A DNA stretch of 44,456 nucleotides from Escherichia phage vB_Eco_ORH_001. Positions 17,598 through 18,258 of this stretch are shown piece by piece. Within the stretch, counting starts at the first letter, position 1; each line of letters opens with the position of its first letter. A model generated the notes under the pieces. It was not told where the DNA came from, searched no databases, and saw only the letters and a program-made list of their open reading frames with translations. The position numbers were made by a program, and so were the translations under genes. The DNA lies in the sequence record PV656001.1. One strand, written 5' to 3'.

Positions 17598-17628
17598 GAA
17601 AAAGGCCCCGAAAGGGGCCTTAGTTTTA
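17598..17628. terminator. bidirectional rho-independent terminator, near-identical to 5411..5440
   Basis: aaaaaggcccc-gaaa-ggggcctt-agtttta; lies between the convergent island operon and the minus-strand ORF 17626..18258. Confidence 0.7.
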
Positions 17629-18258
17629 TCGTTGCGACTTAATTACAGAAACGACTCTTGGATATATCCTCCCGTCTATGGAATCCATAAGCGGCTTAAG
17701 TTCTTCTGCTATTTCCAATTTCCGCAACGTTCTGGCCTTGATGGCTTCGTCCAAGTCAATAAAATCGCCTAAGTTTTCTCGTACCCCGGTTATGGGGTTG
17801 TTAACACGGCATCGTATCTTGCCGTTTGTTTTTCTATAAGTAAGGCCTATTGGCAGATCGCCCCTAACCGCTGCGCTGTCGGTTAGGAAGTTGTTTAAAA
17901 CCCTTGGGACAAAGATGCATGTCTCCGGTGAGTATTCTTTAGCATCTGTAAGTAAATCCTTGTCTACATGCCAACCATCTACGTAATTATCTTTATACCA
18001 TTTAAAGTAGTTGGAGAAATATAGCCAGTCTTCGCACACTACCACACCTGCGTATGTTGGGTGCTTGGCGGCCCCGTGGTAGCACCTGAATATCATCGCA
18101 TACCAAATATCATATACTGGGTGGTTAACAGACTTTTTGCCGTTGAAAATACTAGTGGTAAAATCAGCGTCGTTGATACCGACACCGCAGATTGTTTTAC
18201 GGCATGATACCGCCCGTTTTGATGCGGGTATCTTTTCAAATTCTTCATACAGAAACAT
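17626..18258 (-). CDS. homing-endonuclease-like DNA-binding protein (AP2-like C-terminal domain; no clear HNH motif)
   Basis: Strong RBS GAGGTGA; YDIWYAMIFRCY...YAGVVVCEDWLYFSNYFKW resembles the DNA-binding modules of phage homing endonucleases; lies between the major tail gene and the island. Confidence 0.4.
   Translation of the reverse strand: MFLYEEFEKIPASKRAVSCRKTICGVGINDADFTTSIFNGKKSVNHPVYDIWYAMIFRCYHGAAKHPTYAGVVVCEDWLYFSNYFKWYKDNYVDGWHVDKDLLTDAKEYSPETCIFVPRVLNNFLTDSAAVRGDLPIGLTYRKTNGKIRCRVNNPITGVRENLGDFIDLDEAIKARTLRKLEIAEELKPLMDSIDGRIYPRVVSVIKSQR

Follow-up and report, generated by a model that had tools for sequence, protein, structure and literature searches.

The ICP1-like phage AP2-associated HNH (IPA-HNH) class of homing endonuclease genes (HEGs) was defined by Barth, Dunham & Seed in 2023, with gp59, gp115-116 and gp209 of Vibrio phage ICP1 as its founders (PMC10448857). 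The proteins of this class begin with a domain that is too divergent for the Pfam model HNH_3 and end in an AP2 domain, and their genes are enriched in Barbaviruses and Flaumdraviruses and are placed near essential genes (PMC10448857). No other paper using the name IPA-HNH was found in the literature searched. Here we describe the open reading frame (ORF) 17626..18258 of Escherichia phage vB_Eco_ORH_001 (sequence record PV656001.1; the whole stretch of 44,456 nucleotides that was analysed is referred to as the window). The gene is a further member of this described class, and its product already carries the label "HNH endonuclease" in GenBank (XVB94996.1). We consider it probable that the gene is a free-standing HEG of the IPA-HNH class, for which we propose an AP2-targeted nuclease mechanism that operates without the catalytic His.

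Canonical HNH_3-AP2 homing endonucleases, one of which is also encoded in the window (4790..5275), are said to form the class of Magnani et al. 2004 and to carry a catalytic motif of the I-HmuI type. A His-Me finger enzyme that dispenses with the catalytic His is PacI, in which a Tyr in the inter-strand loop is used and Asp and Asn serve as metal ligands (PMC5714182, PMC4081073). The protein studied here resembles the IPA-HNH proteins of ICP1 in combining an N-terminal domain unseen by Pfam HNH_3 with a C-terminal AP2 domain, and its gene is likewise free-standing, sporadic and located beside an essential gene. It differs from the IPA-HNH genes of the founding study in its host, a Kagunavirus (Guernseyvirinae) outside the lineages highlighted there, and in its position after the tail-tube gene. 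The replacement of the His by Lys and the parallel with PacI, which we describe below, are absent from the discussion in PMC10448857.

Results

Sequence comparison places the gene product in the IPA-HNH family

The ORF is genuine. It lies on the minus strand, starts with ATG, encodes 210 amino acids and is preceded, 4 nucleotides upstream, by the ribosome-binding site (RBS) GAGGTG. The protein is under strong purifying selection, with a ratio of nonsynonymous to synonymous divergence (dN/dS) of 0.055 at a synonymous divergence (dS) of 0.57 against the allele of phage fFiEco03. Its PHROG match is phrog_953, "HNH endonuclease" (E-value 1.5e-70). Over a 5-kb stretch around the ORF, the window is 100% identical to the Kagunavirus vB_Eco_Hrm2 (PV656002.1), whose name, Hrm2, is used in the comparisons below, and many Kagunavirus coliphages are ~90% identical to this stretch. 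The gene and its parts are as follows, with conservation counted among 150 family representatives that are only 30-45% identical overall to the query.

17626..18258, minus strand: coding sequence of 210 amino acids, probable free-standing homing endonuclease of the IPA-HNH type (ORF listing, PHROG 953, BLASTP, dN/dS and GenBank)
17860..18201, minus strand: putative catalytic N-terminal domain, residues ~20-133, with no Pfam model
17956..17964, minus strand: codons of the triad D99-K100-D101 at the end of beta-1, the location of Asp-His in HNH enzymes (150/150 representatives)
17932..17934, minus strand: codon of Tyr109 in the inter-strand loop, candidate stand-in for the missing His as in PacI (150/150 representatives; positional equivalence presumed)
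17893..17895, minus strand: codon of Asn122 on the helix, presumed metal ligand (150/150 representatives; secondary-structure prediction and manual I-HmuI register)
17710..17859, minus strand: AP2-type DNA-binding domain, residues ~134-183 (profile searches, hhalign and Pfam)

By homology, the product of 17626..18258 is a member of the IPA-HNH family. The match in ICP1, found by tblastn, is the coding sequence "previously called GP209", and BLASTP aligned the two proteins with 31% identity over 178 amino acids (E-value 5e-20). ICP1 Gp209 carries the same LDKD...Y...C...N motif, with the D-K-D triad, the loop Tyr and the helix Asn present in both proteins. The family is large: an exhaustive profile search returned 5247 clusters at 50% identity with E-values of 1e-30 or lower, and tblastn against phage genomes located 2477 places in 1421 records, with no more than five copies per genome. 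Matches were enriched in Rheinheimera Barbaviruses, Pseudomonas KIL-like phages and Vibrio phage ICP1, in agreement with PMC10448857. Family copies often overlap or abut genes annotated as nrdA, nrdD, DNA ligase, CCA-adding enzyme or thymidylate synthase (thyA).

Scans of the 210-residue protein against Pfam, NCBIfam and PADLOC gave no match, and neither did a phmmer search against PDB sequences. The N-terminal half alone (residues ~41-125) also matches PHROGs 2081, 3377 and 8790, whose C-termini differ, indicating that the N-terminal domain is a module. Among the long family proteins (P0026, P0036, P0046, P0099 and P0076), some representatives are 400-570 amino acids long and contain two full matches, which could be tandem or fused copies, and one protein of 1012 amino acids has eight AP2-like stretches.

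Invariant residues of the N-terminal domain

The N-terminal domain holds helices with the patterns W..M..RC and Y.GV.VC..W..F..F..W, and a predicted beta-loop-beta-alpha unit made up of a strand at residues 96-99, a 15-residue loop, a second strand at 115-118 and a helix at 119-126. The aromatic pattern had been picked out in the initial annotation. We find it as W52..M55..R58-C59, then Y69-A-G-V-V-V-C75-E-D-W78..F81..Y84..W87; it is as had been claimed except at position 84, which is Tyr in this protein, the Phe given earlier being the family consensus. The residues of the pattern, from W52 to W87, rank among the most conserved of the family.

Seven residues are the same in all of the 150 representatives, namely W52, Y69, D99, K100, D101, Y109 and N122, and R58, W78, W87 and C114 are almost invariant. 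The triad D99-K100-D101 is also invariant in two further family alignments (A1 and A3). The position of the general-base His is occupied by a Lys (K100) in every one of the 150 representatives, and position 97, a His in the query, is H, Q, E, A or D among them. The earlier failure to find an HNH catalytic motif was borne out at the level of the family: none of 144 relatives matches any Pfam HNH model at an E-value of 1 or lower, and His97 is not conserved.

The conserved residues can be compared with those of I-HmuI, whose sequence we verified against 1U3E. The relevant segment of I-HmuI reads VVD74-H75-KDGNKDNNLSTNLRWVTQKIN96, and that of the present protein HVD99-K100-DLLTDAKEYSPETCIFVPRVLN122. 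When the two sequences are read against each other by eye, with no tool alignment, three features of the present protein keep the I-HmuI register if one additional loop residue is allowed: the Asp that closes the first strand, the hydrophobic second strand and the Asn of the helix. N122 lies five residues past the end of beta-2, like N96 in I-HmuI. D99 and N122 are accordingly placed as candidate metal ligands in this register. Runs by other annotators and authors also point to HNH enzymes. An annotation note on the fFiEco03 orthologue records an HHpred similarity to the "HNH catalytic motif in I-HmuI", a paralogue in phage Schulenburg was linked to I-HmuI by HHpred with 98% probability, and the IPA-HNH proteins of ICP1 were tied to HNH by HHsearch (PMC10448857).

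The canonical HNH_3-AP2 proteins, such as that encoded at 4790..5275, share with the IPA-HNH protein the AP2 domain, the nature of a small free-standing phage gene and the predicted distance between the Asp that closes beta-1 and the helix Asn. Unlike them, the IPA-HNH protein has no DH motif, since Lys stands in place of His, and no Pfam HNH_3 match; the N-terminal parts of the two remain unaligned in profile-profile comparison. The helical region rich in W, R and Y (residues 47-91) is an extra part of the IPA-HNH protein that is not found in HNH_3 proteins.

PacI (PDB 3M7K/3LDY; His-Me finger group 20) is matched in its Asp, loop Tyr and Asn by the invariant D99, Y109 and N122, presuming that these positions are equivalent. 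The two proteins are 14% identical. The restriction enzyme PacI is a homodimer and contains two Cys4 zinc sites, whereas the IPA-HNH family has no conserved Cys4 and C114 is its only conserved Cys.

As a separate observation on the N-terminal domain profile, a search against the PDB gave only chance matches to ferritin (E-values above 0.3). Additionally, 22 of the 144 family representatives weakly match DUF4170 (best E-value 0.004).

A C-terminal AP2 domain

The AP2-like character of the C-terminus, noted in the initial annotation, was confirmed by profile comparisons and Pfam matches. A profile built from 25 homologues matches the plant AP2 domains of WRI1 (E-value 1e-4) and AtERF1 (E-value 0.009), and a larger family profile aligns in hhalign with the AP2 part of the 4790..5275 protein (E-value 2.5e-10). 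A Pfam AP2 match is present in 44 of 144 family members.

A precise and sporadic insertion next to the tail-tube gene

The gene resides in a cassette that is inserted relative to phages with an empty site.

17629..18368: inserted cassette (blastn junction mapping; comparison with EC3-1, SHAK7693 and Snoke)
18259..18365, minus strand: 5' region of the cassette, with a hairpin and T-rich tail at 18298-18323 and the RBS GAGGTG at 18263-18268 (terminator scan, sequence and fold)
17602..17621: bidirectional terminator hairpin GGCCCCGAAAGGGGCC, common to HEG-less phages (scan; annotated terminator in Snoke)

In blastn junction mapping, homology to HEG-less phages ends at 17628 and restarts at 18371. 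EC3-1 and SHAK7693 have the exact empty site, in which the terminator tail ...CCTTAGTTTTA runs straight into the reverse-complemented stop codon of the tail-tube gene. In Hrm2, that TTA ends the inserted gene as its stop codon, and the tail-tube gene has a second TTA, at 18366-18368, as its own stop. The insert measures 740 bp, with a boundary ambiguity of 3 bp that arises from the TTA found at each junction. The GC content of the cassette is 0.43-0.44, compared with 0.52-0.55 in the tail genes, a drop of ~10 points.

The terminator hairpin at 17602..17621 ends the HEG transcript in the window and stands directly after the tail-tube stop in HEG-less phages. At the other end of the cassette, immediately beyond the tail-tube stop codon, the scan classed the hairpin at 18298-18323, with its T-rich tail, as terminator-like. 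No sigma-70-like promoter for the HEG was found on the minus strand in a scan of the cassette 5' region, and the RNA fold upstream of the HEG is unremarkable (z -1.15).

Matches to the HEG at the DNA level occur in 11 records, representing seven distinct phages (Hrm2, Ec1-ASingh, PDP21P8, fPoEco01, fFiEco02, fFiEco03 and fEg-Eco19), and always at this site; 42 further records match the 32-bp terminator flank only. In a presence/absence comparison among relatives, as proposed in the initial annotation, the gene is carried by these seven phages, set against ~100 Kagunavirus records, and others such as EC3-1 and SHAK7693 have the exact empty site. The HEG is therefore sporadic rather than universally conserved at this position, and no clearly non-nuclease fold was found for its product.

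Between Hrm2 and Ec1-ASingh, identity is 99-100% over 17200-18400, falling to 72-85% at 16400-16800 and 75-83% at 18600-19400; for the genes flanking the cassette, the values are 75-95%. This block is compatible with the cassette and its flanks having recently been transferred together, although it falls short of proof. In phage Schulenburg, the paralogue, which is 38% identical and of the IPA-HNH type, separates the genes for head morphogenesis and decoration; no insertion interrupts this site in the window.

Two further observations concern alleles of the locus. A truncated gene copy of 137 amino acids (P0003), 92% identical over 65% of the length, lies on a 45-kb phage-sized contig, which points to an allele in decay, a stage expected in the life cycle of HEGs. 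The last codon of the tail-tube gene, which adjoins the insertion point (18366-18371), encodes Val (GTA) or Thr (ACA) in HEG-carrying genomes and Ala (GCN) in the five HEG-less genomes inspected (L007 at 3420-3425, L006, L002, L005 and L004); this difference may reflect a changed target site or a marker that was co-converted.

Proposed mechanism and alternative explanations

In the mechanism that we propose, the C-terminal AP2 domain would recognise a site in Kagunavirus genomes that lack the gene; most likely this site is, or adjoins, the point where the terminator meets the tail-tube stop codon. The N-terminal domain would be a highly divergent beta-beta-alpha-metal (His-Me finger) nuclease that holds its metal with D99 and N122 and nicks or cuts the target site. 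K100 and/or Y109 may take over from the missing general-base His, as a Tyr does in PacI. During co-infection, recombinational repair would then copy the 740-bp cassette, together with some flanking DNA, from the HEG-carrying genome. Because the cassette has its own hairpin and RBS and no recognisable promoter, the HEG is probably expressed by attenuated read-through of the late tail operon. That the N-terminal domain has nuclease activity of the one-metal kind, and that the invariant Lys of D-K-D, possibly together with the loop Tyr, replaces the general-base His of His-Me fingers, is a more tentative proposal, to which we give slightly less than an even chance. If it is true, the family would represent a second His-less solution after PacI, and one that is far more widespread (>5000 clusters). 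At the family level, an abundant phage domain is labelled "HNH endonuclease" while having neither the His nor a Pfam model, and its closest structural precedent is PacI. The coliphage copy offers a convenient test system in E. coli, because natural empty-site alleles exist.

Several points weigh against a homing nuclease. The general-base His is lacking family-wide, and the query protein matches none of the NCBIfam or Pfam HNH models. When the N-terminal domain profile was compared in hhalign with a 100+ sequence HNH_3 profile, with I-HmuI alone and with I-HmuI plus HNH_3, the catalytic regions stayed unaligned and the probability was below 4%, and a Foldseek search of the domain model against the PDB returned nothing at an E-value of 0.001 or lower. 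Because the HHpred and HHsearch runs of others report the HNH link while our local hhalign and Foldseek comparisons are null, we regard the His-Me finger assignment, a reading of sequence, as likely but short of established. PMC10448857 contains neither a discussion of the catalytic residues of IPA-HNH proteins nor a biochemical assay of them, and the literature searched holds no report of biochemical DNA cutting by any IPA-HNH protein. The high-identity block shared by Hrm2 and Ec1-ASingh could be the product of ordinary mosaic recombination with no homing, and a dS of 0.57 between alleles at the HEG site is also consistent with a gene that has long been inherited vertically and is lost now and then.

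The absence of the general-base His throughout the family and the failure of HNH models and profiles to match the N-terminal domain would also fit a domesticated or non-catalytic DNA-binding protein, in which the AP2 domain binds and the N-terminal domain, a degenerate His-Me finger or an unrelated fold, does not cut. Such a protein might work as a regulator or as a module for protein-protein contacts; SMAD MH1 and the AP2 transcription factors descended from HEGs would be its analogues. His-Me groups that have neither the His nor an equivalent Tyr are indeed regarded as inactive (PMC5714182), and purifying selection indicates that the protein matters while leaving its action unspecified. We nevertheless judge this explanation unlikely. 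Pseudo-enzymes normally lose conservation at their catalytic positions, yet every one of 150 clusters retains D-K-D, Y and N; occurrence in multiple copies, sporadically and beside essential genes in unrelated phages, is the behaviour of a selfish nuclease (PMC10448857), and the cassette has a precise empty site.

An active nuclease could also serve mainly in competition between phages or in marker exclusion, cutting co-infecting relatives or a satellite without strict homing. Both ICP1 and E. coli phages have put HEG-derived nucleases to use against satellites (PMC10448857), the gene has been kept under strong purifying selection across alleles at a dS of 0.57, and it adjoins a superinfection-immunity gene. 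There is, however, no PADLOC or defence-family match, and the precise intergenic cassette, the low-GC foreign block and the paralogues at other sites have the anatomy of a mobile HEG. We think a predominantly competitive role quite improbable; since exclusion and homing can coexist, it is more a refinement of the homing explanation than a rival to it. Still more improbable, in our estimate by a wide distance from likely, is a nuclease of unrecognised fold, with no His-Me finger, fused to AP2, in which D-K-D, Y and N would constitute a new kind of active site. Two other candidates were rejected: a terminase-associated HNH protein for cos cleavage, as the gene is not close to the terminase and is absent in most relatives, and a defence or anti-defence gene, as PADLOC gave no match.

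The junction hot spot and its neighbouring genes

The gene upstream of the cassette is a conserved essential neighbour.

18366..19538, minus strand: tail tube gene (Pfam Phage_tube_2, E-value 4.9e-39)

The opposite flank of the HEG consists of plus-strand genes, namely a superinfection-immunity gene (imm), a metallophosphoesterase gene and two small ORFs. Kagunaviruses show at least five alternative contents at the convergent junction where the plus-strand imm/phosphoesterase block faces the tail-tube gene:

IPA-HNH cassette (window 17180-18370): HEG-carrying phages
canonical HNH_3 gene on the plus strand: KMB36
HNH_3 and AP2 gene replacing one small ORF: EC3-1 and HSE2
polynucleotide kinase and deoxynucleoside monophosphate kinase genes: VIPECOTH07 and others
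ORF of 57 amino acids: Snoke

The stretches compared were 17180-18370 of the window and, in the comparison sequences, L003 3080-3619, L007 2674-3144, L005 2675-3714 and L002 3090-3263. The initial annotation had proposed an insertion hot spot at a module boundary, and this idea is supported because the contents of the junction differ between relatives, with other HNH or kinase genes present in sister phages. It had also taken the neighbouring island as acquired, a claim that is not supported: every Kagunavirus compared has both the imm gene and the metallophosphoesterase gene, and variation occurs only downstream of both. Being conserved in all of them, the two genes form a fixed moron-like block and not a recent island. 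Of the original homing-endonuclease reading, the free-standing, AP2-bearing, HEG-like gene that is sporadic and sits at a hot spot is supported, and the acquired island is not.

A selfish cassette can account for the 740-bp low-GC block of the window, and recombination and insertion in Kagunaviruses have a hot spot where the tail-tube gene meets the moron block. Knowledge of such hot spots helps in annotating phages considered for therapy and in reading their mosaic boundaries.

Further observations were made on the surrounding genes. The 5-kb region matches 478 Guernseyvirinae records. The genes at 15819-17180, an Imm_superinfect gene (Pfam, E-value 7.7e-14) and a gene for a 376-residue metallophosphoesterase with a weak N-terminal helix-turn-helix, are embedded in the tail operon on the opposite strand. 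At 14860-15641, the gene for a tail assembly chaperone (Phage_TAC_4) overlaps a following ORF, which relatives have annotated as the product of a programmed frameshift. The middle of the tail-tube gene (18600-19400) is 75-83% identical between Hrm2 and its closest relatives, and the ends of the gene are more than 92% identical, so that divergence is confined to one segment of a structural gene that is conserved elsewhere. SHAK7693 (vB_EcoM_SHAK7693, OR594180.1) is assigned in GenBank to Autographiviridae/Kayfunavirus, yet in this region it is a Kagunavirus-like siphophage of ~91% identity, and its taxonomy label is probably wrong.

A second endonuclease gene in the window

The canonical endonuclease gene used for comparison above lies in a different part of the window.

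4790..5275, plus strand: canonical free-standing endonuclease gene with HNH_3 and AP2, after the helicase gene (Pfam)

Its designation in the initial annotation as a clear HNH/AP2 endonuclease agrees with the Pfam results, in which HNH_3 is matched above the cut-off (E-value 5.7e-11) and AP2 below it (E-value 6.8e-5). Ivi, SHAK7693 and 536P11 lack the gene or have it replaced, and it is widespread in Jersey-like Salmonella phages.
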